The notes under the pieces are model-generated. The model saw only the letters and a list, made by a program, of their open reading frames with translations. It was not told the DNA's origin and did no database searches. From NCBI RefSeq assembly GCF_932526225.1, contig NC_064047.1, positions 1,817,027-1,881,026 on the forward strand: a stretch of 64,000 nt of DNA, in the 5' to 3' direction. Below are positions 2,036 to 63,622 of this stretch, piece after piece. The stretch comes from Nematostella vectensis. Taxonomy: Eukaryota. Every line of letters begins with the position of its first letter. Position 1 is the stretch's first letter. Both the position numbers and the translations under genes were made by a program.

Positions 2036-3953
2036 TCACAAATTCGAAGAGAATTATCAAATAACTGGATTCTATACGAATGACCTGTGAGCTCCCTACA
2101 AGGACTAAAAACTAAACAGAACGTCAGGATAGGCGGAGGAAAAGAAGCCTTAGCGATACGGGATCAAAGGCTGAACTGGTTGAGTGCCCGCTCGAGCTTT
2201 ATTCAGTGTTCTACAGCTGTAGGTACCTCTAGCTCGCCTTGCGGGACTACGACCCCAATGATAACTCTACATCGGAAGCCTCTCCTCCAAACGATAAATC
2301 ACGGCATTTGACTTTGTTTATAACTTAGGCGGCTCATCGCATTAATGCTAATAATATCTAACTTTTTTGACAATCATTTACAGCATGCCATAATATCTTA
2401 GGCAACGACTCGCAATGGGTCGCAATGCTGAACTTTTTACTTTGTCTTATCAACAATGCTATTTATTTCACTGATCATTATGGCTTATAATCTTGATTTA
2501 ATATTTATATTAACTTTCTTAACATCGCCGCCACTGTATTTGTGGCCTCTTGGCTCATAGAGCTGTTGATTCTGTTGCAGAGAGCTGGGGTCCCCCTTTT
2601 CTTTGTCACCAATAATCCTGATGATGTCCGCCTGCAGATGTACTTATTGGAGTTCATACAACAGTTGATACCTGGCCCAAGCTGAACATATCATACAGAA
2701 TGTGATGCCTGTTTGATGACGTCATAAAAAGCTAGTACCTCAACCTGATTACGTAATATAGAAGATGATACAGAACCGAGTCAAGCTGATAACGTCTTAC
2801 AGATGATACCTCTCCAATGATGTCATAAGCAAGCTATTGTCTGGTCAGTGACGCCATAAAACAAATGGTACCTGGTTTTTAACGTAGTGCAACATACTGT
2901 ACAATGTTACATCGTCAGTGACGTTATACAACAGCTGATACCTTGTGTATTTTGTCATGAGCCAACACTACCTGGTCCAACAGATGACACCATGTAATTT
3001 TTTGTTGAAAGCTGTTTTACAGTATGTAATAGATAAATTTAAAATTCAAAGAAATCTCATCGTCCAGCAAGAGAAAAATGCAAGCAGCTTTTTTTTCTCT
3101 TGGCCAGATATTCAAAAGTTTCTTGATTTCTTAAATCCAAATGAGCGACTAAGAAGAATTTTTGGTTGTTGCACTGGAGTGTACTGGACAGATTGTTGTA
3201 GAAAATAAGATTTGCAAAGGAATATTTTTAAAAAGACTGCGTTCGGACATTTAGGCCTTAATGCCTTTTGTATTAGGGACCGTAAAGTTGTCAATCATGA
3301 AATTGAAAAAGAAGTTTAATGATCAAGAAGCAACTAATAATCGATACCAAATCCTGTCAATTGTACTACCGATCAGAAAATATTGAACAAATGTTTCTTG
3401 TTTTAGGCCTTTTCTTCAAAATGTTACCATATTTTATATGTTCTGCCTACATGTATAGTACAACAAAGAGCCTATCTTGGAAACATTGTGGATGATCACA
3501 ACTAAATCAAGTCACTCAACAAGTGTTAACGTCGACTTTATTAGGAGTTGTGAGTTTATTCGCTTGTGTTTATCAAAATTTAACAAATGAAGGTTGCACA
3601 ACTACTATAACTTGATAAATTTCAACATTGAATTAGTATCAGGATAATATATTATAACAATAATTATAATAATAGTCTATTGTCCTCTATAATTATATTA
3701 GTGTCCATTTATGATATCGATATGACACAGTTAACGTGTGGGAATTCGAGGGAACCACTTTGAATTCATACTGCCGGTCAAATCCACAGCGTGAACATAT
3801 ATTCTGTAATTGATCTTGTACTATGAAGAGTTATTTATTCACTTATGAGAGCGGGAGCAGTCATACTGCTGGTCTATTCCAAGACATAAGTCACCGAATG
3901 AGTAATGCTTGGTGATTCTCCGGCTTTCCTTCTCACGGGCGTATAGTATTACA

Positions 3954-10619: not shown

Positions 10620-11115
10620 CCTACTTCCTCTTCCTGCATGTCACGTCACGTGATAGTAACCTCCTTTTTTGGGCGGTCACGTCACACAGTACTTACCTCC
10701 TCTCCTCCATTTCCGCCAGGTGATGTATACCCTCTCTCCACCATTTGACGTCACGTGATGATTACCTTTTCTTCCGGTAAGTGATGTCACGTGATTTTTA
10801 CCTTCTCCCTCTGAAGGTGACGTCACGTGATGCTTACCTCTCCTTCCGGCATGAGACGTCACGTGATGCTTACCTCCTCCCTCTGAAGGTGACGCCACGT
10901 GATGCTTACCTCCTCTTCAGGCATGTGATTCTAAACTCTTCTTCAGGCATGAGACGTCACGTGATGCTTATCTTCACTTTCTTAATGTGACGTTACATGA
11001 TGCTCACCTCCTTTTCCGGTAAGTGGCGTCACGTGATTCCTACCTCTTCTTCCAGTATGCGGTGTCACGTGATTTTGACCTTCACCCTCTGCATGTGACG
11101 TCGCGTGATGCTCAC
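10620..11115. repeat. About 60-bp minisatellite (about 8 copies) whose unit is the ASCC3 exon-25 donor junction (minus strand GAGGAG|GTAAGCATCACGTGACGTC)
   Basis: Every unit carries an AG|GTAAGC consensus donor plus a CACGTG E-box and a TGACGTCA CRE-like palindrome. The array abuts the real donor at 11115/11116. Confidence 0.8.
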
Positions 11116-11379
11116 CTCCTCTTCAGGCATGTGCAGCCATTGCTTGGGGTCATCCTGGGCGGCCAGGAAGGCGATCAAGTCCAGGGCTGTTAGTCTGGTC
11201 TGTCTTCTGGACGAGACGAAGACGAGGGTGGGCTTGGTCGGAGAGTGAATCCGGATCGCCTCGAAAGTTGGCTTGTTCATAGTAGCCATACGAGGGCAGT
11301 AATGCTTGCCGGGAAATCCTGTGATGTGAACCTCAAGAGGAACAGGGCGAACTGAAGGTCGGAAGTTGAACATACCAGC
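11116..11379 (-). CDS. ASCC3: ASCC3 exon 25 ([88 protein letters not shown])
   Basis: The [16 protein letters not shown] motif is conserved. Acceptor tccccaag| and donor GAG|GTGAGC. Confidence 0.9.
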
Positions 11380-12419: not shown

Positions 12420-12746
12420 GTCGACCACAAAGATAACTAGTATGAGATCTGCCAGCTCTGACTGACGCTCAGCCCAACAAACCAGTTGCATACTAGTTTT
12501 ACAGGTTAAAGAATCTACCTCTTTAATAATAACCAGATTGACTTGTTTGACATAGCTAAGCGTCTGCCAGCTCTGACTGATCCCAGCCCGACAAGCCAGT
12601 TGCATACTAGTTTTACATGTTTAAATATCTACTTCGTCAATAGTGAGCAGATTGAATTGTTTGACATAGCTACGCGTCTGCCAGCTCTGACTGATCCCAG
12701 CCCGACAAACAAATTGCATACTAGTTTTACAGTTTTAAGTATCTAC
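12420..12746. repeat. 120-bp tandem pseudo-copies (about 3 copies) of the 3' end of ASCC3 exon 23 plus its donor (…SWQTRSYVKQVNLLIIDE|GTAGAT)
   Basis: The minus-strand copies read SWQTLSYVKQFNLLTIDE|GTAGAT and ...IIKE|GTAGAT. Confidence 0.8.
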
Positions 12747-12900
12747 CTCGTCAATAATAAGCAGATTGACTTGTTTGACGTAGCTACGCGTCTGCCAGCT
12801 TCGACTGATGCCGTCCCACTTCTCCGGTGTCGTCACGATGAGGTCAGCCTGGCTAATGGAACGCGAGTCTGGTGTGACGTCACCCGTCAGTTCTATCACC
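12747..12900 (-). CDS. ASCC3: ASCC3 exon 23 ([52 protein letters not shown])
   Basis: Acceptor ccgttgccag| and donor GAG|GTAGAT. The downstream intron carries 2-3 pseudo-copies of this exon's 3' end plus donor. Confidence 0.85.
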
Positions 12901-13153: not shown

Positions 13154-13439
13154 CTGTAAAAGGACAAAACAATTCATCTGACCTTTGATTCTTTAAAATA
13201 AAACCTCCCACATGATATGCTACCCAAAGGCCGGTTCCTAGATGGCAGGTTAGCCTTAACACACGGATAAATCGGCTATCCCGACATTTAATTGTACAAA
13301 AAGCGCATCCATCCCTGACTTAGCGTTAGCATGCTTTCTAGGAATCCGGCCCAGTACTTCTAGTGCCTCGGTCATTACTCGGCATAGAAGTAATTTGAGA
13401 TGTGCCTCGTTATTATGAGGGCATGACTGGGTACTGGGT

Positions 13440-14095
13440 TCGGGAGTGACTCGATACTATTCGGGTGTGACTCGATACTATTCGGGAGTGACTCGATACA
13501 ATTCGGGAGTGACTCGGTACAATTCGGGAGTGACTCGGTACAATTCGGGAGTGACTTGGTACTATTTGGGAGTGACACGGTACAATTCGGGAGTGACTCG
13601 ATACAATTCGGGAGTGACTCGTTACAATTCGGGAGTGTATCGGTACGATTTGGGAGTGACTAGGTACAATTCGGGAGTGACTCGGTACAATCCGGTAGTG
13701 ACTCGTTACAATTTGGGAAGTGACTAGGTACTATTCGGGAGTGACTCGGTACAATTCGGGAGTGACTCGATACAATTCGGCAGTGAATAAGTACAATTCT
13801 GGAGTGACTAGACACAATTCGGCAGTGAATAAGTACAATTCAGGAGTGACTCGTTACAATTCGGGGAGTGACTCGTTACAATTCGGGGAGTGACTAGGTA
13901 CAATTCGGGGAGTGACTCGGTACTATTCGAGAGTAACTCGAGTTCGTATTATTTGGGAGTGACACGGTATTATTCCGGAGTGACTTGGTACTATTCGGCA
14001 GTGACCCGGTACTATTCGGCAGTGACTCGGTACTATTCGGCAGTGACTCGGTACTATTCGGCAGTGACCCGGTACCATTCGTGTGCATTTAACTG
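13440..14095. repeat. 21-30-bp minisatellite (GGGAGTGACTCGGTACAATTC)n, more than 20 copies, starting just 3' of the exon-21 donor
   Basis: Direct reading. The unit does not contain the junction. Confidence 0.8.
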
Positions 14096-14106
14096 TTTAT
14101 GCATAC

Positions 14107-14229
14107 CTTTGCACCAGGATACTTGTCGAACAACCTGAATATAGCAAGCTCGGCGATGATGGTCTTGCCTGAGCCGGTGGGCGCCCCTAGCAGCACATTG
14201 TGGTCAGAGTTGTACACGGTGTGGAAAAC
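14107..14229 (-). CDS. ASCC3: ASCC3 exon 21: second cassette Walker A ([41 protein letters not shown])
   Basis: The [10 protein letters not shown]-loop is present. Acceptor cctttag| and donor AAG|GTATGC. Confidence 0.9.
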
Positions 14230-14399
14230 CTAAAGGAATAGTGTATATATGGTAAATTTCAACTGCGTCATTATAAATGCCAATTTGGACCTTAGCAACA
14301 ATGACGAAAACGTGGACGAAGACGGCAGAAAACAATGAAACGGGATTATGAATAGCAGCAGGTAAAAAGGCGTTCTGATAAATTTCAGTTGATGCTGTA

Positions 14400-15154
14400 T
14401 TGCGTGATTTCAAGTTGTGTCGCGTGATGTCACGGCCGTCTTACGTGGCCATACGTATCTGTACGAGGATTGGGTGCGTGGCTAGCTTTGTTGCGTGACG
14501 CAATGGCGTTGTATTGCGTTATTCCAAGCAATGTTGCGTGACGTCACAATGCTGTATTACGCAACCATATGTTGCGTGACGCCATGGTGCTGTATTGCGT
14601 GATTTCAATTAATGTTGCGTGACGTCACGGTATAGTATGGAATCACGGGTGGCCCTCTCAACCCTGAATTTCACTTGTTGGACGTATGTGAGCTTACTAG
14701 AAGCTCGTGTTCCTCAGTTCCAAGATGGGTCATTATTAATACATTAGGATTTTAAATGTGAAGCGCTTAGAACATGGTTGATATAAGCGCTACATAAATG
14801 TCAATTGAATTAATTAATTTAATTATTACGCGACCATACAGTGCCTGTATCTGTACGGGGTTATGTTGCGTGACGCCATGGTGCTGTATTGCGATGATTT
14901 TTAGTAGTGTTGCGTGACGTCACGGTGCAGTATTGCGTGACAATACAGTACCTGCATCTGCACGGGGTAGTGTGCGTGACGCCACGGTGTAATGTTTGAA
15001 TTCAAGTAGTGTTGTGTGACGTCACGGTGTAGTATTACGTGACAATACAGTACCTGTATCTGCACGGGGTTGTGTTGCGTGACCTAATGTTGCAGCATCG
15101 CGTGATTTCAAGTAGCATTGCGTGACATCACGGTGTAGTATTACGTGACCATAC
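14400..15154. repeat. 60/120-bp minisatellite (about 6 copies) built from the ASCC3 exon-20 donor junction (minus strand AACCCCGTGCAGATACAG|GTACTGTATTGTCACG, i.e. …NPVQTQ|GT)
   Basis: Each unit repeats the last 18 nt of the exon plus a GTA donor and a TGACGTCA motif. The array abuts the real donor at 15154/15155. Confidence 0.8.
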
Positions 15155-15421
15155 CTGTGTCTGCACAGGGTTGAAGTGCGTAAACTTGTAGAGCAGCTCG
15201 TAGCTGACATTGTGTAGCGCGCTGATGGGCAAGGGCTGTAGGTCTAGTAGCTCAGTGTGCGGTGGATGTCTCTCCGGGAGGATCAAGTGCTGGAAGGAGA
15301 TAGCGCACACAGTCTCCGCCCCAAGCCACCGGTCAGACACTGCGTGTACGTAGTACTGAGGGGGGAGGGGTTCGAAGATAGGGATGGTGAATACGAGACT
15401 CTGGGGCTCCTCTGATAAGAC
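15155..15421 (-). CDS. ASCC3: ASCC3 exon 20 ([89 protein letters not shown])
   Basis: Near-identical to ASCC3 residues around SDRWLGAE...[14 protein letters not shown]. Acceptor ccttgtcag| and donor CAG|GTATGG. Confidence 0.9.
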
Positions 15422-16387: not shown

Positions 16388-17560
16388 CTGAGATCATAAT
16401 GAAAGGGTGTATAATGTGAGATACGAACACATAATCAAGGGGTGTATAATGTGAGATACGAACACATAATCAAGGGGTGTATAATGTGAGATACGAACAC
16501 ATAATCAAGGGGTGTATAATGTGAGATACGAACACATAATCAAGGGGTGTATAATGTGAGATACGAACACATAATCAAGGGGTGTATAGTGTGAGATACG
16601 AACACATAATCAAGGGGTGTATAATGTGAGATACGAACACATAATCAAGGGGTGTATAGTGTGAGATACGAACACATAATCAAGGGGTGTATAGTGTGAG
16701 ATACGAACACATAATCAAGGGGTGTATGATGTGAGATACGAACACATAATCAAGGGGTGTATAATGTGAGATACGAACACATAATCAAGGGGTGTATAAT
16801 GTGAGATACGAACACATAATCAAGGGGTGTATAGTGTGAGATACGAACACATAATCAAGGGGTGTATAATGTGAGATACGAACACATAATCAAGGGGTGT
16901 ATAGTGTGAGATACGAACACATACTCAAGGAGTGTATAGTGTGAGATACGAACACATAATCAAGGGGTGTATGATGTGAGATACGAACACATAATCAAGG
17001 GGTGTATAATGTGAGATACGAACACATAATCAAGGGGTGTATAATGTGAGACACGAACACATAATCAAGGGGTGTATAGTGTGAGATACGAACACATAAT
17101 CAAGGGGTGTATAATGTGAGATACGAACACATAATCAAGGGGTGTATAGTGTGAGATACGAACACATAATCAAGGGGTGTATAATGTGAGATACGAACAC
17201 ATAATCAAGGGGTGTATAGTGTGAGATACGAACACATAATCAAGGGGTGTATAGTGTGAGATACGAACACATAATCAAGGGGTGTATGATGTGAGATACG
17301 AACACATAATCAAGGGGTGTATAATGTGAGACACGAACACATAATCAAGGGGTGTATAATGTGAGATACGAACACATAATCAAGGGGTGTATGATGTGAG
17401 ATACGAACACATAATCAAGGGGTGTATAATGTGAGATACGAACCCAAAATTAAAGGTTGTATAATGTGAGATACGAACACATAATCAAGGGGTGTAGAGT
17501 GTGAGATACGAACACATGATCAGGGATGTATGGTGTGAGATAGGAACTTAAGATCAGGGG
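16388..17560. repeat. 40-bp minisatellite (GGGGTGTATAATGTGAGATACGAACACATAATCAA), about 29 copies, filling about 85% of the intron between exons 19 and 18
   Basis: Direct reading. The unit resembles the last 20 nt of that intron (cattatgatctcag). Confidence 0.85.
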
Positions 17561-20339: not shown

Positions 20340-20882
20340 CGCCGTGTTAGTGAAGTTGGCTGGTCCTTACCTCGATAGTATCGAACTCGATGTAGAAGTG
20401 ACTGGTCGTGTTATCAAGGTCGGCTGGTCCTTACCTCAATAGTATCGAACTCGATGTAGAAGTTTCTGGTCGTGTTATCGAGGTCGGCTGATCCTTACCT
20501 CAATAGTATTGAACTCGATGTAGAAGTTACTAGTTGTGTTATCAAGGTCGGCTGGTCCTAACCTTAATAGTATCGAACTCGATGTAGAAATTTCTGTTTG
20601 TGTTATCAAGGTCGGCTGGTCCTTACCTCAATAGTATCGAACTCGATGTAGAAGTGACTGGTCGTGTTATCGAGGTCGGCTGGTCCTTACCTCAATAGTA
20701 TCGAACTCGATGTAGAAGTAACTAGTCGTGCTATCGAGGTCAGCTGGTCCTTACCTCAATAGTATCGAACTCGATGTAGAAGTTACTAGTTGTGTTATCG
20801 AGGTCGGCTGGTTTTTACCTCATTGGTATCGTACTCGATATAGAAGTGACTGCTCGTGGTCTCAAGGTCGCCTGGTCCTTAC
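20340..20882. repeat. 60-bp minisatellite (about 9 copies) built from the ASCC3 exon-15 donor junction (minus strand …TTCTACATCGAGTTCGATACTATTGAG|GTAAGGACCAGC)
   Basis: Units read FYIEFDTIE|GTAAGG, against the real exon end FYIKYDTIE|GTAAGG. Confidence 0.85.
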
Positions 20883-21047
20883 CTCTATAGTATCGTACTT
20901 GATATAGAAGTGACTGGCCGTTCTACCGAGGTCGGTGGCTGACAAGTAGCCTTGCTCCTCTGCAAATCTGATCATACGGGCCTTGTCCAGTTTACGAGCA
21001 GTCGACACTATCAGCTGCCGTCTGTAATTCTCGAGTGTCGGGTCATC
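20883..21047 (-). CDS. ASCC3: ASCC3 exon 15 (DDPTLENYRRQLIVSTARKLDKARMIRFAEEQGYLSATDLGRTASHFYIKYDTIE)
   Basis: Acceptor ttttcaag| and donor GAG|GTAAGG. The real donor is the first in a ladder of about 10 tandem donor copies. Confidence 0.75.
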
Positions 21048-21818: not shown

Positions 21819-21938
21819 CTCTTTATCCTTGTGAGGAATTCCATAGACTAGAGGGTTCTTGATCATTCGTATGTACAGGTAAGAGTAGCTCAGCCATTCC
21901 ACCGCTTCGTTTACATTAGTAACAGTACCAAGACAAAT
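21819..21938 (-). CDS. ASCC3: ASCC3 exon 14 ([40 protein letters not shown])
   Basis: Start of the winged-helix/Sec63 region. Acceptor cttgtag| and a weak donor GAG|GTTCGT. Phase 0 on both sides. Confidence 0.6.
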
Positions 21939-22400
21939 CTACAAGACAATGTATTACTTGAATGCGGCCTAGAAAGTCAAGTCTGAAAAAAAGGGGTGAT
22001 CATGGGATGTATAATAATCGTGTAGGGTCGAATAGTTATTCCACCGCTTCGTTTACATTAGTAACAGTACCAAGACAAATCTACAAGACAATGTATTAGT
22101 TGAATGCGGCCTAGAAAGTCAAGTCTAAAAAAAAAGGTTGATCATGGGATGTATACTAATCGTGTAGGGTCGAATAGTTATTCCACCGCTTCGTTTACAT
22201 TAGTAACAGTACCAAGACAAATCTACAAGACAATGTATTAGTTGAATGCGGCCTAGAAAGTCAAGTCTGAAAAAGGGGTGATCATGGGATGTATACTAAT
22301 CGTGTAGGGTCGAATAGTTATTCCACCGCTTCGTTTACATCAGTAACAGTACCAAGACAAATCTACAAGACAATGTATTATTAGTTTGGTGCGGCCCAAA
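21939..22400. repeat. 120-bp tandem repeat (about 4 copies) built from the ASCC3 exon-14 acceptor junction (minus strand ttgtcttgtag|ATTTGTCTTGGTACTGTTACTAATGTAAACGAAGCGGTGGAA)
   Basis: Each unit contains the acceptor plus the first about 45 nt of the exon. Confidence 0.85.
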
Positions 22401-23789: not shown

Positions 23790-24560
23790 AAATAAATAAG
23801 TCCACTCCCTCGCAGCCTACAAAAACCACTCGAACTATACAAGGCGTCGAGGGTATACTTATTGTGATCGTTAACTCGCTGGCGCTCGCTGATTTCCTGA
23901 GCAAGACTTTTCGCGTCAAGAAGTCGACTTATCTTCTCGTCATCCTGGCCGTGGCGGATCTGATGGTCGGGCAAAGCCTTACCATGGACTCCCTCTCAAC
24001 ATTAACAAAAGGGGTTGGCGCCGAGGAAGCCCGTATTTCATTCTATGTTATGAAGGTTTCGGTGAACGCGTCGCTGTTCTCGTCCACCTTCATAGCAATA
24101 GAAAGATCCTACGCCGTCCTGGTACCCTTTAGACATCGCCTTCTTACAAGCAAGCCGTACGGCGTAGCGATAACCTTGGTCTGGGTCCTGGCAATCATAA
24201 CCGAATTGTATAATGTACTTTAAAGGTCATTCCATCAAATCTTGACAGAGAAGGGTAAAATACTCTCCACAGTCAAAACAGGCCTGGCCCTCATTTCGTT
24301 AAAAGTAAAGTTCAGTTGCTATCTCGCTACTTGGTGCAGGGTGAAGTTTACTGTAAATCCAACAGCAGGGAGAGACAGCTCGTGAAATACAAACAAACTA
24401 ACGCAAACTTTATTCGTTACAACATTGGTGTCGTTTCTGCTGTTCTTTCCGTTGGCAATTGGTATTTTGTAATATGAATGGTAGAGGTTAAGGTGTCCCT
24501 TCTCGTAAACTTAGCGTGTCTTATGTACTTTAACTCCGCCGTTAACGTTCTGGTGTACTC
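23790..24560 (+). pseudogene. Intronless class-A (rhodopsin-like) GPCR pseudogene fragment inside an ASCC3 intron
   Basis: TM2 LAVADLMVG, TM3 IAIERSYAVLVPFRHR (an E/DRY-type motif), TM6 FLLFFPLAIGIL and TM7 NSAVNVLVY (NPxxY with P replaced by V) are recognisable. TM6 and TM7 lie in different frames separated by in-frame stops. No TM5 was found, and the N-terminus is truncated by a stop. Confidence 0.55.
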
Positions 24561-24989
24561 CCTGCGAATGGAAGAGTTCAAGAGGGAGGCGAAGAGGATC
24601 CTTAGGTGTGCTACCCTTAGCAAAGATTGCAAGTTTCATTCCTGCCGTCTGCAACAAGTGAAGAATACAATCACGAACACACTAGACAGGACAAACCTGT
24701 ACGACAAACGACGAAGAAAGGTGAAACCTCGACAGCCTTGGATACTGTTCCATCGACTAGACAAGACAACCTGACATTTACTGCATACAACGATTGGTAA
24801 GTCAACTTGAAAACAATGACTTTTTCATCCTCGGGAACCCAGGGCGTCGAGGCCACAGGCGCATGAGCGTGTCGGAACATGGCCGGCAGAGGGGTAGGGG
24901 ATAGTAGGCGGGAGAGAAGCGTTATCGCGCCTTCTTTCGCTGCCCTCAACGTCCTGGGTACCCGAGGATGTGACTTTTTCACTCAACTG

Positions 24990-27642: not shown

Positions 27643-27777
27643 CTGCTTGAGGGCGCTACCGTAGTCTGGGGCCTGCTCTGCCCTGAAGAGCATGGAGTCC
27701 CCCTGATTGGAAGCCATCTCTCTTAACGTCATGGCCGTCCGCACGGTGGCATTTCTAGCATGAACAAACACCATGAC
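27643..27777 (-). CDS. ASCC3: ASCC3 exon 11 (VMVFVHARNATVRTAMTLREMASNQGDSMLFRAEQAPDYGSALKQ)
   Basis: The VMVFVHARNATVRTA motif is conserved. Acceptor tctcttcag| and donor CAG|GTACTG. Confidence 0.85.
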
Positions 27778-27960
27778 CTGAAGAGACAAATAAATAATTA
27801 TAGAACGAACAAACACCATGACCTGAAGAGACAAATAATTCTAGCATGAACAAACACCCTGACCTGAAGAGACAAATAAATAATTATAGAACGAACAAAC
27901 ACCATGACCTGAAGAGACAAATAAATAATTATAGAACGAACAAACACAAACCTGAAAAGA
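27778..27960. repeat. 45-bp tandem repeat (about 4 copies) duplicating the ASCC3 exon-11 acceptor (minus strand ctataattatttatttgtctcttcag|GTCATGGTGTTTGTTC)
   Basis: Direct reading. Each unit has a full polypyrimidine-AG acceptor plus the first 16 exon nt. Confidence 0.85.
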
Positions 27961-28125
27961 TAAATGACTACGTAGATACCATTTTCGTAATCATCACTAC
28001 AATAATTATCATTATGATCACCGTCATCAAAATCGTTTTCTTGTATTCAGATCAGTATGTTTCCGGTATTTTCAGAACAATCACCGTCATGATGATCATC
28101 ATCGACGTGATCATGAACATTACCG

Positions 28126-28469: not shown

Positions 28470-28559
28470 CGTCCTTGCTATCGTAATCATTATTGTTAAC
28501 ATTATTATCAACATTGTCGCCATCTTCAAGCGCAGATCAATTCCACCTGTTTACGTAAA

Positions 28560-28930
28560 CAGGTCAAAAGGTTTAGATTTATAACATTAAGAATGAGCTG
28601 CAAGTCTTGATTCTGTTAGTTAAGGCGACAGTGTTCAGCCTAAAAGAGGTCAGAAATTTTCGTAAACAAGTCAGAACTTTTAGTAAACAGCTCAGAATTT
28701 TTCGTAACAGCTCAAAAGTTTTCGTAACAGAACTTTTCGTAAACAGGACAGAACTTTTCGTAACAGGACAGAATTTTTTGTAAACAGGTCAGAATTTTTC
28801 GTAATAAGGACAGACCTTTTCGTAACAGGTCAGAGTTTTTCGTAACAGGTCAGAATTGTTCGTAAACAGGTCAGACATTTTCGTAAACATGTCAGAACTT
28901 TTCATAAACAGTTCAGAAGTTTTCGTTAAT
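28560..28930. repeat. About 30-bp minisatellite (TTTTCGTAAACAGGTCAGAA), about 11 copies
   Basis: Direct reading. It is not junction-derived. Confidence 0.8.
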
Positions 28931-28994
28931 ATGTCTGAATTTTTCCTGGACCCGCGCCGTCATTTTCTTGGAACTGTAGAATTGCCTGCTATAC

Positions 28995-29243
28995 CTGGTA
29001 GCCCTTCTCCACGTTTTCTGTGACCTTCTCATAGCAGATCTTATCCATCTCGTGCGCTTGCTGGAACGGGTTCAGCCCTTTCACCCCGATGAACGTCTGT
29101 CCGAGGGGGACTGGGCGAAAACGTGAGTCGAAGGCGAAAAGACCTTTGTACGGGTCCACCCTTAGGAAGTGTGCGACGTCCAGATAGTTAGGGAGAGTAG
29201 CAGACAGTCCGACAATGCGAATCATGGACTGCGAGGATAACAC
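28995..29243 (-). CDS. ASCC3: ASCC3 exon 10 (VLSSQSMIRIVGLSATLPNYLDVAHFLRVDPYKGLFAFDSRFRPVPLGQTFIGVKGLNPFQQAHEMDKICYEKVTENVEKGYQ)
   Basis: Helicase motif III (SAT) is present. Acceptor attgtag| and donor CAG|GTATAG. Confidence 0.85.
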
Positions 29244-30400
29244 CTACAATACATATTAAGATAAATTCCAACAGATGGTTAGGAAGAGTGGCAGATAGGC
29301 CGACAATGCAAATCCTAGACTGTGAGGACAAAACCTACAATACATATTAAGATAAATTCCAACAGACGGTTAGGGAGAGTGGCAGATAGGCCGACAATGC
29401 AAATCCTAGACTGTGAGGACAAAACCTACAATACATATTAAGATAAATTCCAACAGATGGTTAGGGAGAGTGGCAGATAGGCCGACAATGCAAATCCTAG
29501 ACTGTGAGGACAAAACCTACAATACATATTAAGATAAATTCCAACAGATGGTTAGGGAGAGTGGCAGATAGGCCGACAATGCAAATCCTAGACTGTGAGG
29601 ACAAAACCTACAATACATATTAAGATAAATTCCAACAGATGGTTAGGGAGAGTGGCAGATAGGCCGACAATGCAAATCCTAGACTGTGAGGACAAAACCT
29701 ACAATACATATTAAGATAAATTCCAACAGATGGTTAGGGAGAGTGGCAGATAGGCCGACAATGCAAATCCTAGACTGTGAGGACAAAACCTACAATACAT
29801 ATTAAGATAAATTCCAACAGATGGTTAGGGACAGTGGCAGATAGGCCGACAATGCAAATCCTAGACTGTGAGGACAAAACCTACAATACATATTAAGATA
29901 AATTCCAACAGATGGTTAGGGAGAGTGGCAGATAGGCCGACAATGCAAATCCTAGACTGTGAGGACAAAACCTACAATACATATTAAGATAAATTCCAAC
30001 AGATGGTTAGGGAGAGTGGCAGATAGGCCGACAATGCAAATCCTAGACTGTGAGGACAAAACCTACAATACATATTAAGATAAATTCCAACAGATGGTTA
30101 GGGAGAGTGGCAGATAGGCCGACAATGCAAATCCTAGACTGTGAGGACAAAACCTACAATACATATTAAGATAAATTCCAACAGATGGTTAGGGAGAGTG
30201 GCAGATAGGCCGACAATGCAAATCCTAGACTGTGAGGACAAAACCTACAATACATATTAAGATAAATTCCAACAGATGGTTAGGGACAGTGGCAGATAGG
30301 CCGACAATGCAAATCCTAGACTGTGAGGACAAAACCTACAATACATATTAAGATAAATTCCAACAGATGGTTAGGGAGAGTGGCAGATGGCCGACAAGGC
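29244..30400. repeat. 90-bp minisatellite (about 13 copies) built from the ASCC3 exon-10 acceptor junction (minus strand tatgtattgtag|GTTTTGTCCTCACAGTCTAGGATTTGCATTGTCGGCCTATCTGCCACTCTCCCTAACCATCTG)
   Basis: Unit = the last about 27 nt of the intron including the acceptor, plus about 63 nt homologous to the exon start (real: GTGTTATCCTCGCAGTCCATGATTCGCATTGTCGGACTGTCTGCTACTCTCCCTAACTATCTG). Confidence 0.85.
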
Positions 30401-30599
30401 AAATATTAAACATCCTCTGTCTTAGCCATTTTATCATCCTAGCAAAGCACCACTTTTATCGGCTAAATAAGGGGAATTAATGTCATATTTTAGATTGAAT
30501 TTGTTAAATAAAGAATCAAACTTTGTTTTTAGATGGCCTCTAGATGTCTTACTAACACATGAGAGATTAGCGAACAGCAAAACAAATAATGCAACGTCC

Positions 30600-30790
30600 T
30601 TGCTTAAAGCCTCAGGGATACTCGGGTTTTGCTCGGAAATGCCGATGATTTCCTGTTGTAACGTCCTCGCTATAAAAAGCCTCAGGGCTTTTCGGGATTT
30701 ACTCGGAAATGCCGATGATTACCTGTCGTAACGTCCTCGCTAAAAAGTCTCGGGACTAATCAGGGTTTACTCGGAAATGGCGATGATTAC
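30600..30790. repeat. 60-bp tandem copies (about 3 copies) of the ASCC3 exon-9 donor junction (minus strand GCGAGGACATTACGACAG|GTAATCATCGCCATTTCCGAG)
   Basis: Direct reading. One copy has its donor mutated to GAAATC. Confidence 0.8.
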
Positions 30791-30955
30791 CTGTCGTAAT
30801 GTCCTCGCCACAAGGCACTCAATGACGGAGCCACGGTCATCATGCAGCAAATGAACCTCGTCAATGATGAGTAGCTTGACAAGCTGAGCCAGCGCTACAT
30901 CTCCAGTGGACTTACGTGTGACAACATCCCACTTTTCCGGGGTAGTGACAAGCAT
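30791..30955 (-). CDS. ASCC3: ASCC3 exon 9, containing the DEVH box ([55 protein letters not shown])
   Basis: The DEVH motif and a TTPEKWD motif are present. Acceptor tgtcgcag| and donor CAG|GTAATC. Confidence 0.85.
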
Positions 30956-59047: not shown

Positions 59048-61339
59048 GTAAGAGAAGTGGATTATAGGGAGCTTGAAGCTCGAATCTGGGTTCCACTCTT
59101 TGTGCCTGGGGCTATATTGTGTATGTTTGTGGTGATTTTTATTTCGTACATCCAGTACATAGAATGAAGTGATGGCAGAAAGTGTCGAAAATGTGGGGAT
59201 GAACATGGTGGGTGGGTGCTAGTGAAAAAAAGTCAGGATTTCCATGATAGCGACAGTGGATGGGGAAAACTGAAACGTTTGTAATAATTAGGGTAGTGAG
59301 AATATAAAGAATATGCTTCGTATGTACGTGACGATCTAACTTATCTAGAAACATCTCTGAAATTGTTTATAAACCTCTAGATCAAGAATTAATTAAATGC
59401 GTGTTTTGTTTTGTAATAGCACTAAAAAGAAAAATAAACAATTTTGTGAAGATCATCAATTTCAAGCCATAGTGTGATGGACAAGAACTTAAAAGCAACA
59501 CATCATCTTTTGTTTCAAAGCAGACGTAAAAATGACTATTTCTCTACTTCGGCTTATTTTAGACCTTTTGATACGTTTGGTAAGCTGGGGTCTGATAGAC
59601 ACACCTTTAGAAATGTTCCCGAAGAGAAGACAGAAATGTGATATGCCATTTGCCTTTAAAAGACCTATCATTCGTTTTGAAACATGAGGTGGGGAGGAGG
59701 GCTGATTAACACTCTTTAATAAACAAAAACAGGTATCAAGCAGATGCTTGTCAATGTACACTTACTCATTCCCTGTTTGGGTTGAGAGCGTAAAATTCAA
59801 TTAAAACCAGGAAGCTTAGCCCAAGTGTGCCCCCTTATGGTAATGTCAGCAGTCAAGATAGGGGCTACTAGGTTACGCTCGGACAGACAAAACAAAAAGA
59901 ATGGAGCAATTAATAAGTTTTTAACTCTTTAACCGATAAAAGGTCAGAGGTGAGCTCGAGCTTGTAGAGATATTTATTTTATTTTGAGGCATCGAGGGAG
60001 TAGTACGGATGATGGTCTACACTGTGTGGAAACCCCAAAAACAGTGAAGATAAAGAAAAGAAGAAAAAAAGCCGGGAATAGTTAAATGCAAACCGTTGAA
60101 AAATATCAATTGGAATAAAGCCGCTCAAAAAAAAATCTAGCTTAGAATATAACTCGATTCACAGACCCATTTGCCCCTTAAGCTTTTTTTTTTGGCAATA
60201 TAGTAATTCCTAGAAATGCCATATTTGCCATATTCGCGTGACCATTGAAGGGAGTTGGATATAGCAGCAACTGGATCATAAACAATCCAAGTGTCACAGC
60301 CAGGACAGAGCAGAAAAACTTGCACGAAACACGATTAAGCATTCTATTAGTGTCTTACATTCAGTTTTGCATAAATTCATTCTGATATTGCATAAATGAT
60401 CCACGATATGAAGTCCAACGGCTTGCTTAGTAACAGCCTCTGGCATAGCCTCTGAGAGAACAATCTTGTCTAGTTCTTCGTTACGTCATTTCCTGTTTAC
60501 GATTGCGTAGGCGTGCCCAGTTCTCCTCCGGTCTGCCCCAAGGATGATGGTCGACGAAACGGCTTGAAGACATTTGGAAGTCATCAAGCCTCTGTTAGCG
60601 GTTGAATATCCTAAACGGCACTAAAATCCTTCCTCTGCTCAATACCTTTTCTTTCGCTGTGTGTATCATTTCTTATTTGTTCAAACTACAAGCGCATCTC
60701 AATGTTCCTTTTTTAAAGTTTATTGGATTACGTCATCGTGTGGTAAAAAATTTGCCTTTCAGATATTCGAAACCTGGCTTTTAATGTTTTAAAAACATGT
60801 TTGATGAGTCCAAGAAGAAATGGTTAAATGTTAACTCAAAAGAAGAGCTACGTCTTTTTTCGTGACGTGCTGACCCTATTAGTAAGCATTGTTGTATGTA
60901 TATGCGCCATTTGGAAAGAGTTAGTGATGCCGGCATATTTACAGCCTTTGAAAGGCCCCGTTAGGGGCTTAACCAGACAAGCTCATCTATCATATAGCGA
61001 TTTGTACGTCTCATTACATGAATTACGCTCATTTAGTTTAAACCTTTCGGCGTCGGCCTTTTGGTCAGTTTAAACTACCGAAGACGGTTATTACAGCAAT
61101 TAGTAACCCAAAAAGCCGCAGATTGGAGCAGATAGTTCCACATGGATGTATTTTGTTTCCTTTTTTGAGAGTGATTACACTCTAATAAATAGCATATTTC
61201 TAGTTACAGGGGCGTTTAAGGGTCAATGGGTAAGAGGTAGTGAAAGGCAGTGTGGGGGGACTTCATGTAAGATGGTTTGACCATTTAGTCGTTCGGTATT
61301 TGAGCAAATGTGTGATAATTCTGTTAATGCTTGAGGGTG

Positions 61340-62132
61340 CATTTTTGCCGCCATTTGTTCTGACACCTCTGTTACCATGTTTGCAAGCGCATGTTTCCCG
61401 CCATTTGTTCTGACACCGCTGTTTTCTGTTTGCAGGCGCATGTTACCTGCCATTTGTTCTTGTACCGCTGTTTTCATGTTTGCAGGCTCATGTTTCCCGC
61501 TATTTGTTATGAAACCGCTGTTTTCATGTTTGCAAGCGCATGTTTCCCACCTTTGTTCTGACACCGCTGTTTTCATGTTTGCAGGCGCATGTTTTCCTCC
61601 ATATGTTTGATACCGCTGTTATCATGTTTGCAGGCGCATGTTTCCCGCCATTTGTTCTGATACCACTGTTTTCATTTTTGCAAGCGCAAGTTTCCCAAAA
61701 TTTGTTCTTATACCGCTGTTATCATGTTTGCAGGCGCATGTTTGCTGCCATTTGTTCTGACACCGCTGTTTTCAAGTTTGCAGGCGCATGTTTCCCGCCT
61801 TTGTTCTGACACCACTGTTATCATGTTTGCAGGCGCATGTTTCCCGCTATTTGTTCTGACACCGCTGTTTTCATGTTTGCAGGCGCATGTTTTCCACCAT
61901 TTGTTATGACACCGCTGTTTTCATGTTTGCAAGCGCATGTTTCCCGCTATTTGTTCTGACACCGCTGTTTTCATGTTTGCAGGCGCATGTTTTCCACCAT
62001 TTGTTCTGACACCACTGTTATCATGTTTGCAGGCGCATGTTTCCCGCTATTTGTTCTGACACCGCTGTTTTCATGTTTGCAGGCGCATGTTTTCCACCAT
62101 TTGTTATGACACCGCTGTTATCATGTTTGCAG
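61340..62132. repeat. 50-bp minisatellite (about 15 copies) built from the TBX20 exon-3 acceptor junction (unit GCGCATGTTTCCCGCCATTTGTTCTGACACCGCTGTTTTCATGTTTGCAG)
   Basis: Each unit ends in the acceptor tcatgtttgcag| and restarts with the first 19 nt of exon 3 (GCGCATGTTTCCCGCCATT). The last unit is the real acceptor and exon. Confidence 0.9.
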
Positions 62133-62249
62133 GCGCATGTTTCCCGCCATTCGCGTGAAGGTGTCTGGTTTGGATCCCCATGCGCACTACATACTAGTGA
62201 TGGATGTAATACCGCTGGACGGCAAACGCTACAGATACGCATATCATAG
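62133..62249 (+). CDS. TBX20: TBX20 exon 3 ([39 protein letters not shown]-)
   Basis: RMFP...VSGLDP...[12 protein letters not shown] is the TBX20 signature. Acceptor tgtttgcag| and donor AG|GTAAGT. Confidence 0.9.
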
Positions 62250-62279
62250 GTAAGTTCCTAAGGGCAGTCGTCACACTGC

Positions 62280-62525
62280 AGGGCCGTAGCCAGCAAAAGC
62301 CACGTGAGGCATTCGCCTCGGTAAAATTTTGATGTTTAGTGTTTCACAATTGAAAAGTATGAGATAAAATACCTGCTTTTGTTGGATTTATCATCCAGTG
62401 GGTAGCTTTGCCTCGGTAAAATTTTGATGTTTAGTGTTTCACAATTGAAAAGTATGAGATAAAGTACCTGCTTTTGTTGGATTTATCATCCAGTGGGTAG
62501 CTTTGCCTCGGTAAAATTTTTATTC
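62280..62525. repeat. 120-bp tandem duplication (2 copies: gcctcggtaaaattttgatgtttagtgtttcacaattgaaaagtatgagataaa…) just 3' of TBX20 exon 3
   Basis: Direct reading. Confidence 0.8.
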
Positions 62526-62653
62526 TGGCTACAGGCCTGCTCTGCGATGCATGTTCTGCACGGAAGCAGCTTCTTGGCACAAAATGAATAATTTTACTTG
62601 GTGGTTTCCGTGGTGTTCGGCATTACTTAAATCCACCTCTTGGTTTATGCCAG

Positions 62654-62810
62654 TTCCAAGTGGGTGGTAGCGGGGAATGCAGACGCTCCTATGCCCGGGC
62701 GGGTCTATATTCACCCGGACTCTCCGGCTCTTGGGGAGGAATGGATGAGACAGATCGTGTCATTCGATAAAGTCAAGTTGACCAATAACGAGCTGGACCA
62801 ACAAGGACAT
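62654..62810 (+). CDS. TBX20: TBX20 exon 4 ([54 protein letters not shown])
   Basis: [18 protein letters not shown] matches the TBX20 sequence [18 protein letters not shown]. Acceptor tgccag| and donor CAT|GTGAGT. Confidence 0.9.
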
Positions 62811-62869
62811 GTGAGTGTTCATTGATAGCTAGGCATGATGTCCGCATGACAATATATGCTGATGCTGAT

Positions 62870-63600
62870 GCTGCTGCTGCTGCTGCTGATAATGGTGGTG
62901 GTGGTGATGGTGGTGGTGGTGGTGGTGGTGGTGGTGGTGGTGGTGGTGGTGGTGGTGGTGGTGGTGGTGGTGGTGGTGGTGGTGGTGGTGGTGGTGGTGG
63001 TGGCGATGGCGATGGCGATGGCGATGGCGATGGCGATGGCGATGGCGATGGCGATGGCGATGGCGATGGCGATGGCGATGGCGATGGCGATGGCGATGGC
63101 GATGGCGATGGCGATGGCGATGGCGATGGCGATGGCGATGGCGATGGCGATGGCGATGGCGATGGCGATGGCGATGGCGATGGCGATGGCGATGGCGATG
63201 GCGATGGCGATGGCGATGGCGATGGCGATGGCGATGGCGATGGCGATGGCGATGGCGATGGCGATGGCGATGGCGATGGCGATGGCGATGGCGATGGCGA
63301 TGGCGATGGCGATGGCGATGGCGATGGCGATGGCGATGGCGATGGCGATGGCGATGGCGATGGCGGTGGCGGTGGCGATGGCGATGGCGATGGCGATGGC
63401 GATGGCGATGGCGATGGCGATGGCGATGGCGATGGCGATGGCGATGGCGATGGCGATGGCGATGGCGATGGCGATGGCGATGGCGATGGCGATGGCGATG
63501 GCGATGGCGATGGCGATGGCGATGGTGATTGTGATGGTGATGGTGATGGTGATGGTGATGGTGGTCATGTTGTTGATGATGATGATAATGATGATGATGA
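62870..63600. repeat. Compound microsatellite (GCT)n-(GGT)n-(GGCGAT)n-(GGTGAT)n-(GAT)n, about 730 bp, in TBX20 intron 4
   Basis: Direct reading. All four long six-frame ORFs here are artefacts. Confidence 0.95.
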
Positions 63601-63622
63601 TATGCTTTTTCTTTGCAAATAG

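Follow-up and report, generated by a model that had tools for sequence, protein, structure and literature searches.

Minisatellites that straddle an exon–intron boundary have so far been described mainly in amphioxus and in the human F7 gene. The amphioxus arrays, known as mirages and present in Adh3, the globins BflGb6/9, troponin C and PGBD5, consist of tandem units that run across the boundary and carry copies of the splice signal (PMC3087553, PMC3902484). In human F7, the first element of a 37-bp variable number tandem repeat (VNTR) in intron 7 (IVS7) spans the exon 7 donor, and the tandem pseudo-donors downstream of it are silent; experiments established that, among several identical donors, a 5′ to 3′ scanning-type process picks the one lying furthest upstream (PMC1557585). 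Here we describe an array of the same kind from Nematostella vectensis. It fills most of intron 20 of ASCC3 in a stretch of 64,000 nucleotides (contig NC_064047.1, positions 1,817,027 to 1,881,026; hereafter the window, whose own numbering is used throughout). The array is a mirage-type exon–intron-boundary minisatellite in a cnidarian, and its units carry palindromes that resemble the cAMP response element (CRE). No description of boundary minisatellites in Nematostella was found in the searchable literature.

ASCC3 encodes a two-cassette helicase and occupies 35 kb of the minus strand (3954-38921). A crude concatenate of its exons was 97% identical to the N. vectensis ASCC3 protein (P0121), the next-best protein matches coming from Actinia tenebrosa (72%), corals (66-68%) and Branchiostoma (60%). 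An amphioxus source, which the literature on mirages had suggested, was rejected on these values. Threading P0121 codon by codon through the window yielded 32 exact exons, and tblastn supplied two more. For comparison we used scaffold DS469525.1 of the 2007 N. vectensis assembly (L004; 99.6-99.9% identity to the window), A. tenebrosa ASCC3 (L005) and 28 kb of other Nematostella DNA (L006/L007). The last comprises overlapping sequence from two G-protein-coupled receptor (GPCR) paralogues, holds few minisatellites and two singleton copies of the CRE octamer TGACGTCA, and served as background only. Threading set the exon 20 donor at 15155/15154, and the coordinates, exon number and NPVQTQ/GT junction given in a first-pass annotation of positions 14400-15154 were thereby borne out. 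Intron 20 interrupts the same codon position in A. tenebrosa, where it is 580 nt long, and the peptide across the exon 20/21 junction is uninterrupted in two species without an intron here (L001, L003).

Intron 20 is mostly a degenerate minisatellite of about 102 bp, six units of which extend from 14393 to 15170; the final ~165 nt of the intron are unique. Tandem Repeats Finder (TRF) reported the 102-bp period at 14824-15154 (3.2 copies, 80% matches, score 421) and a 43-bp sub-period at 14489-14624. The six units align head to tail with a mean column identity of 70% (Table 1). The authentic junction, comprising the exon tail at 15170-15155 and the start of the intron, forms the terminal unit U0, from which the array extends downstream. 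Four of the five downstream units open with a copy of at least the last 16 nt of exon 20, and in three (U1-U3) this copy leads into a donor-like GT or GC. These three begin CCCCGT(G/A)CAGAT(A/G)CAG, followed by GTACTG, GTACTG and GCACTG respectively, and match the exon tail CCCTGTGCAGACACAG at 13-14 of 16 positions, so the array does stem from the exon 20/intron 20 donor junction, as had been proposed. A longer exon-derived part, of 30-45 nt, was also considered. With the register fixed, one boundary gave 9 agreements in 14 positions (P = 0.004) and another gave 3 in 14, and free local alignment gave p = 0.16; the extent was left as at least 16 nt, possibly more.

Each unit has an internal structure of its own. 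The sequence TCACG(C/T)AA(C/T)A occurs four times per ~102-bp unit, and two longer half-unit motifs, CACCGTGACGTCACGCAAC and CACCATGGCGTCACGCAAC, can be distinguished, the first holding the exact CRE and the second lying one base from it. A 5-nt insertion, GTACT, is common to U1-U3 and absent from U0 and U5; the interior has therefore been homogenised or has grown from a variant unit, while the edges keep an older form. U3 is interrupted by 185 bp that are probably a SINE-like (short interspersed nuclear element) retroposon and not part of the repeat. This insertion is present in both N. vectensis assemblies; we found no second copy of it in the window or in L006/L007, and a tRNA search of it returned no tRNA.

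The units are confined to this intron. A 22-nt exon 20 junction probe matched no other intron, and no unit copies were found elsewhere in the window or in the 28 kb of other Nematostella DNA, so the units are not a transposon. The array is base-for-base identical in the 2007 assembly and is therefore not an assembly artefact. The same comparison, which covers two assemblies of possibly related animals, revealed no length instability, and an exact look-up for population copies of the junction open reading frame returned none.

The octamer TGACGTCA occurs ten times in the window against 0.99 expected, a number reached in none of 100 shuffles. Four exact copies lie in the intron 20 array (at 14539, 14620, 14915 and 15017), which thus holds CRE-like palindromes as first noted, and two lie in an array in intron 25. 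Allowing at most one mismatch, GTGACGTCAC occurs 21 times (1.4 expected), with 7 occurrences in intron 20 and 11 in intron 25. In all, four exact and five near CREs lie within ~750 bp of intron 20. The CRE copies of all units fall in the same alignment columns, with the octamer ~30 nt past the donor copy in U1-U3 and 25 nt past the authentic donor in U0; the donor copy of U4 has been lost. Given this shared position, the four exact CREs represent one ancestral site that was amplified, a single event. Likewise, the excess over chance arises from tandem amplification, and the independent events number one per array. GTGAyrTCAC is altered only twice, each time by a transition at the central CpG: edge unit U0 has C>T (TGATGTCA) and edge unit U5 has G>A (TGACATCA). 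Across the whole array, CpG sites had not decayed faster (10.9% vs 12.8% differences), and only these two CRE-core changes are CpG transitions.

We consider it likely that the CRE-like sites descend from one ancestral intronic site that hitch-hiked with the unit of a mirage-type minisatellite, with no special mechanism involved. The starting point would have been the tandem duplication of a segment of ~100 bp, running from at least 16 nt before the end of exon 20, through the 5′ splice site, to about nt 85 of the intron. Unequal exchange or slippage during replication would then have raised the number of units to about six, a site at about +25 to +30 from the donor being copied with every unit. 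Interior units would have been homogenised while the two edge units kept the older form; later, unit 3 would have received the 185-bp retroposon-like element and decay would have set in among the distal units. Being intronic, the downstream donor copies would be removed together with the intron on splicing from the first donor. The palindrome in intron 25 would be an independent second event, one that chance could supply in a window holding 30 arrays.

The intron 25 array is the second junction array with a CRE, in agreement with the first-pass annotation. It repeats the junction MPEEE/GTRAGC in units of ATGCCGGAAGAGGAG/GTAAGCATCACGTGACGTCAC and contains two exact and nine one-mismatch copies of TGACGTCA, the CRE positions being conserved no better than the remainder of the unit. 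Beyond the 11-mer CGTGACGTCAC, the intron 20 and intron 25 units have nothing in common. A further set of repeats, at 2640-3000, was not scored by TRF. These decayed units copy the end of the coding sequence (CDS) of a DGCR6-like gene, and carry, in register, TGACGTCA (at 2717), TGATGTCA, TGACGCCA and TGACGTTA, following the pattern TGAyGyCA. Since they run across a stop codon, boundary-spanning duplication is not confined to splice junctions. The longer sequence ATGACGTCAT occurs in the window solely at 2715-2724 and 54390-54399.

Whether the recurrence of CREs in junction arrays is coincidence or a shared sequence preference had been left open. A preference would mean that ACGT-core palindromes (GTGACGTCAC) make a unit likelier to expand, which we regard as unlikely. 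Neighbouring palindromic copies might pair as hairpins on single-stranded DNA and so favour slippage, or an ATF/CREB-type protein might open chromatin and draw breaks, as at the fission-yeast M26/CRE hotspot. In S. pombe, CRE-like ATGACGT(CA) sites bound by Atf1-Pcr1 make meiotic recombination hotspots, and such sites are active in budding yeast (PMC2396409, PMC9775316, PMC3534124). We are still more doubtful that GTGACGTCAC-type palindromes are cis-acting instability cores of Nematostella boundary minisatellites, such that units gaining a perfect palindrome get amplified through inter-copy hairpins or bZIP-dependent breaks; if true, this would explain why, within 64 kb, three separate arrays all have the perfect octamer in their interior copies. 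Several observations do weigh against simple hitch-hiking. The array at 2640-3000, beside the DGCR6-like gene, is a third CRE-bearing array, missed in the first pass, and TGACGTCA is the sole palindromic 8-mer to occur in three arrays. Scoring the octamer in one unit per array against real Nematostella background (five TGACGTCA in 75.8 kb of non-array sequence, ~1 per 15 kb), its presence in at least 2 of 30 arrays has P = 0.010 for a pre-specified motif, and in at least three arrays P = 0.00035. In both intron 25 and the 2640-3000 array, the perfect octamer belongs to amplified interior copies and not to the authentic copy, which reads CGCGACGTCA in intron 25 and GGAGTTCA in the DGCR6-like CDS. 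GTGA..TCAC is the longest invariant block of the intron 20 unit alignment, and the palindromes extend past the 8-bp CRE, to CGTGACGTCACG in intron 20 and CAyGTGACGTCACrTG in intron 25. Single-stranded folding of CRE units beats shuffles (z = -2.6 and -3.1), with hairpin stems formed by the CRE palindromes of adjacent half-units, whereas two CRE-less junction units give z ~0. Set against a preference, however, seven of the nine junction arrays are CRE-less, including those richest in copies (35 bp x33, 91 bp x13.5 and 64 bp x9), and copy number differs between assemblies only in CRE-less arrays, whereas the CRE arrays, which at 65-80% matches show the greatest degeneracy in the gene, are unchanged. 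Among the 30 window arrays, pairs sharing a 10-mer number 8 (6.4 in shuffles) and pairs sharing an 11-mer 3 (2.2), and 42 different 8-mers occur in at least 3 of 31 arrays. In ordinary Nematostella DNA, TGACGTCA is already 4-5x more frequent than dinucleotide shuffling predicts. The flanks in introns 20 and 25 read GTGACGT on both strands, not the M26 heptamer ATGACGT. A further argument, directed against hotspots set by transcription factors, is the reported presence in N. vectensis of two PRDM9 paralogues, both of full length (preprint 10.64898/2026.09.07.749791). Finally, the motif was chosen after it had been seen, so the enrichment figures are suggestive only, and the CREs in the second and third arrays are within the range of chance combined with post hoc choice. 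Of the two options left open, coincidence plus hitch-hiking is thus favoured, and the evidence for a CRE preference is weak.

Selection for a regulatory module is a further reading, in which local duplication built a homotypic cluster of CREB/ATF sites that serves as a putative intronic enhancer or internal promoter just upstream of the second helicase cassette. The density of exact and near CREs fits this, as does the position of the CRE core as the best-conserved block of the unit, and the formation of binding-site clusters by local duplication is a described mode of regulatory evolution (PMC3188502). We nevertheless judge it improbable: the second motif of every intron 20 unit is TGGCGTCA, which is no CRE, the central CpG is gone in two of six units, and the CRE positions in intron 25 show no extra conservation. 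The sites are intronic and not promoter-proximal, being placed inside a housekeeping gene some 24 kb (>20 kb) past the ASCC3 start codon, and there is no CRE at the start of the orthologous Actinia intron, the two intron starts resembling each other as GTATGTAATACTGTACAC (Actinia) vs GTATGGTCACGTAATACTACAC (N. vectensis). It is barely credible that the array derives from a mobile element or satellite family, a fragment of which came to lie beside the exon by chance, or that it is an artefact of assembly. A retroposon-like insertion of 185 bp does lie in the array, but the units begin with exon 20 sequence in register and have no further copies in the window or L006/L007, Rfam and tRNA searches (window; insertion) gave no match, and two independent assemblies are the same at every base; together these results already contradict this reading.

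Other palindromes in the window were also surveyed. Those of at least 12 bp number 27 against 18 +/- 5 in shuffled sequence, no striking excess; seven of the 27 have an ACGT centre, where ~1.7 would be expected if the 16 centres were equally likely. One of 20 bp, the perfect palindrome ACCTGTTTACGTAAACAGGT with a TTACGTAA core (28545-28564), lies 80 nt from a 21-bp array (28643-28945) whose unit has AAACAGGT. Three ACGTCA half-sites, among them the 12-bp palindrome CATGACGTCATG, are packed into 40 bp at 54360-54410 and may constitute an intergenic cluster of promoter CREs.

Splicing of intron 20 is probably normal, with the decoy donors silent, as judged from the sequence. Read-through past exon 20 in phase 0 gives GTA TGG TCA CGT AAT ACT ACA CCG TGA, a stop after eight codons, so use of any downstream decoy donor would produce a premature stop. 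Because NPVQTQ-VFHT is present in the annotated protein P0121, is contiguous in the species lacking the intron and is split at the same codon in Actinia, the first donor, alone in being continuous with the reading frame, would have to be the one used. The authentic donor (GTATGG) has a G at +5, which the decoys of U1-U3 (GTACTG, GCACTG) lack. Weakness of the decoys would not be the general cause of their presumed silence, however, since those of intron 15 (GAG/GTAAGG, eight copies, 20343-20935) are identical to the authentic donor and those of intron 25 (GAG/GTAAGC) are closer to the donor consensus than the authentic GAG/GTGAGC. With so many equally good donors in introns 15 and 25, the spliceosome would have to choose the first. 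The human F7 IVS7 repeat offers the best available model for how this might be achieved.

Intron 20 is one of several such cases in the gene. Searching each intron with 22-nt probes from its own junctions, at up to five mismatches, we found junction-derived copies at 9 of the 62 mapped N. vectensis junctions; these derive from the donor in introns 9, 12, 15, 20, 23 and 25 and from the acceptor in introns 9, 10 and 13. The probes had 0-1 matches in introns other than their own. The two donor copies in intron 12 are short and isolated, and large direct repeats sought in that intron were not found. Of the 21 TRF arrays within the gene, 7-8 reach into an exon and 11 span a boundary or sit no more than 10 nt from one. 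We compared these counts with a neutral model in which random tandem duplications are tolerated unless wholly exonic, using pre-expansion intron lengths. The model predicts 4.4 spanning arrays, giving P = 0.11 for at least 7 and P = 5e-4 for at least 11 when abutting arrays are included. Survivorship in short introns may therefore account for much of the association with junctions, leaving some excess. Two large arrays adjoin exon boundaries without containing them: 16395-17547 (35 bp x33) lies 8 nt from the exon 19 acceptor, and 13439-14081 (21 bp x30) lies 26 nt from the exon 21 donor. Homology between the arrays of introns 20 and 21, suggested by visual inspection, was rejected, as their alignment did not rise above shuffles.

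ASCC3 of A. tenebrosa has the same 34 exons, with introns of 76-757 nt, and spans 18 kb as against 35 kb in N. vectensis. None of the 66 junctions examined there has junction copies; the intron 20 array is absent from the Actinia orthologue, and the CRE is likewise missing from the corresponding intron. Junction arrays roughly double the length of the N. vectensis gene relative to that of Actinia. The orthologous Actinia intron (L005 11998-12227) contains a 10-bp repeat, CAATACAGAT x23, which loosely resembles the exon tail GTACAGACTCAG; the resemblance may be chance. Whole-unit differences in copy number separate the window from the 2007 assembly in intron 9 (5 x 91 bp), intron 13 (2 x 142 bp), intron 18 (~15 x 35 bp) and intron 21 (1 x 21 bp), in all cases in CRE-less arrays, and reflect either VNTR polymorphism or collapse in the older assembly. 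All other ASCC3 introns are identical or a few single-nucleotide polymorphisms apart, introns 20 and 25 being identical.

Table 1 Positions, in window numbering, of the intron 20 repeat units and of related arrays and exons
Feature	Position	Strand	Details
ASCC3 exon 20	15155..15421	-	267 nt; ends NPVQTQ, ACA CAG/gtatgg; phase 0; from P0121 threading
Intron 20	14230..15154	-	925 nt; donor CAG/GTATGG at 15154; acceptor cctttag/GTTTTC at 14230/14229
ASCC3 exon 21	14107..14229	-	Begins VFHTVYN; P-loop of second helicase cassette
U0, authentic junction unit	15070..15170	-	16-nt exon tail CCCTGTGCAGACACAG and first 85 nt of intron
CRE variant of U0	15130..15123	gene strand	TGATGTCA, CpG transition form
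U1	14968..15069	-	Exon-tail copy CCCCGTGCAGATACAG; decoy donor GTACTG (G at 15053); exact TGACGTCA at 15017-15024
U2	14861..14967	-	Exon-tail copy; decoy GTACTG (G at 14951); exact CGTGACGTCACG at 14913-14924
Second half-unit motif of U2			TGGCGTCA
U3	14568..14860	-	Exon-tail copy; decoy GC donor (G at 14844); exact CGTGACGTCACG at 14618-14629; interrupted by the 185-bp insertion
Insertion in U3 (probable retroposon)	14639..14823	+	185 bp; ATA on either flank; A/T-rich (AATT)n tail; GCGCTTAGAACA...AAGCGCTACATAAATG
U4	14469..14567	-	Without exon-tail/donor segment; exact TGACGTCA at 14539-14546
U5, degenerate distal edge	14393..14468	-	CCTCGTACAGATAC/GTATGG; CRE variant TGACATCA at 14432..14425 (gene strand)
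Intron 9 donor array	30593-30808
Intron 9 acceptor array	29181-30404		91 bp x13.5
Intron 10 acceptor array	27753-27965
Intron 12 donor copies	26788 and 26469		Two
Intron 13 acceptor array	21896-22380		142 bp x3.4
Intron 15 donor array	20343-20935		64 bp x9
Intron 23 donor array	12448-12809		114 bp x3
Intron 25 junction array	10640..11133	-	~14 units of 36 bp; 15-nt exon 25 tail (MPEEE) and GTRAGCATCACGTGACGTCAC
Decayed direct repeats	2640..3000	+	60-80% identity; copy last ~25 nt of DGCR6-like CDS, TGA (2683-2685) and start of 3′ untranslated region

The window holds further features away from these junctions. Within intron 12 of ASCC3, on the plus strand (23864-24774), lies a rhodopsin-type GPCR reading frame with 37-45% identity to N. 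vectensis GPCRs annotated as apelin, sphingosine-1-phosphate or lysophosphatidic acid receptor-like; its division over three frames marks it as a probable nested pseudogene. At 47079-51585 there is a long block of C-rich minisatellite, in which periods of 28, 69 and 44 bp are joined by a higher-order one of 418 bp and the GC skew goes down to -0.65; it neighbours a gene resembling matrix metalloproteinases at 46074-46379. At 61339-63602 there are a 50-bp x16 array and a hexamer array, (TGGCGA)93.

On its own the CRE carries little weight, since it is most likely a passenger motif, and the finding of arrays at 9 of 62 junctions in one gene provides the more useful context. If such arrays prove to be genome-wide, Nematostella would be a tractable system for their study, given transgenics, population samples and long-read assemblies. 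It could address how the spliceosome passes over extended series of decoy donors and acceptors that are just as good, and show whether boundary-spanning duplications are merely a tolerated subset or are actively favoured.

Of the known systems, the S. pombe M26 hotspot shares with intron 20 the exact 8-bp palindrome, here present four times, and provides a precedent for raised local recombination. The sites described here differ in being intronic, amplified by descent, flanked so as to read GTGACGT and unconserved in Actinia, and the available proxy for CRE-linked recombination, a difference in copy number between the two assemblies, is zero for introns 20 and 25. Intron gain by tandem duplication of AG/GT segments (Rogers model; Hellsten et al. 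2011, PMC3265369) is similar in that a duplicated splice-signal segment is tolerated; under that model boundary-spanning duplications survive because one copy is spliced out. Here, in contrast, no new intron has arisen: the position is shared with Actinia and an existing intron has only been lengthened. The F7 repeat differs in that its pseudo-sites are identical to the authentic donor, whereas the intron 20 decoys lack the G at +5, and in being a single human locus as against nine junctions of one Nematostella gene. Amphioxus mirages belong to a cephalochordate and not a cnidarian host, CRE-like palindromes were not found among their reported features (PMC3087553, PMC3902484), and an insertion interrupts the intron 20 array, which is old (80% matches) and of equal length in the two assemblies. 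In other respects the correspondence is close. In mirages too, the authentic junction is the first unit on the donor side or the last on the acceptor side, the interior is homogenised and the edges are excluded (globin mirages, PMC3087553), donor-side and acceptor-side arrays occur in one gene, and some arrays vary in copy number between haplotypes or assemblies.

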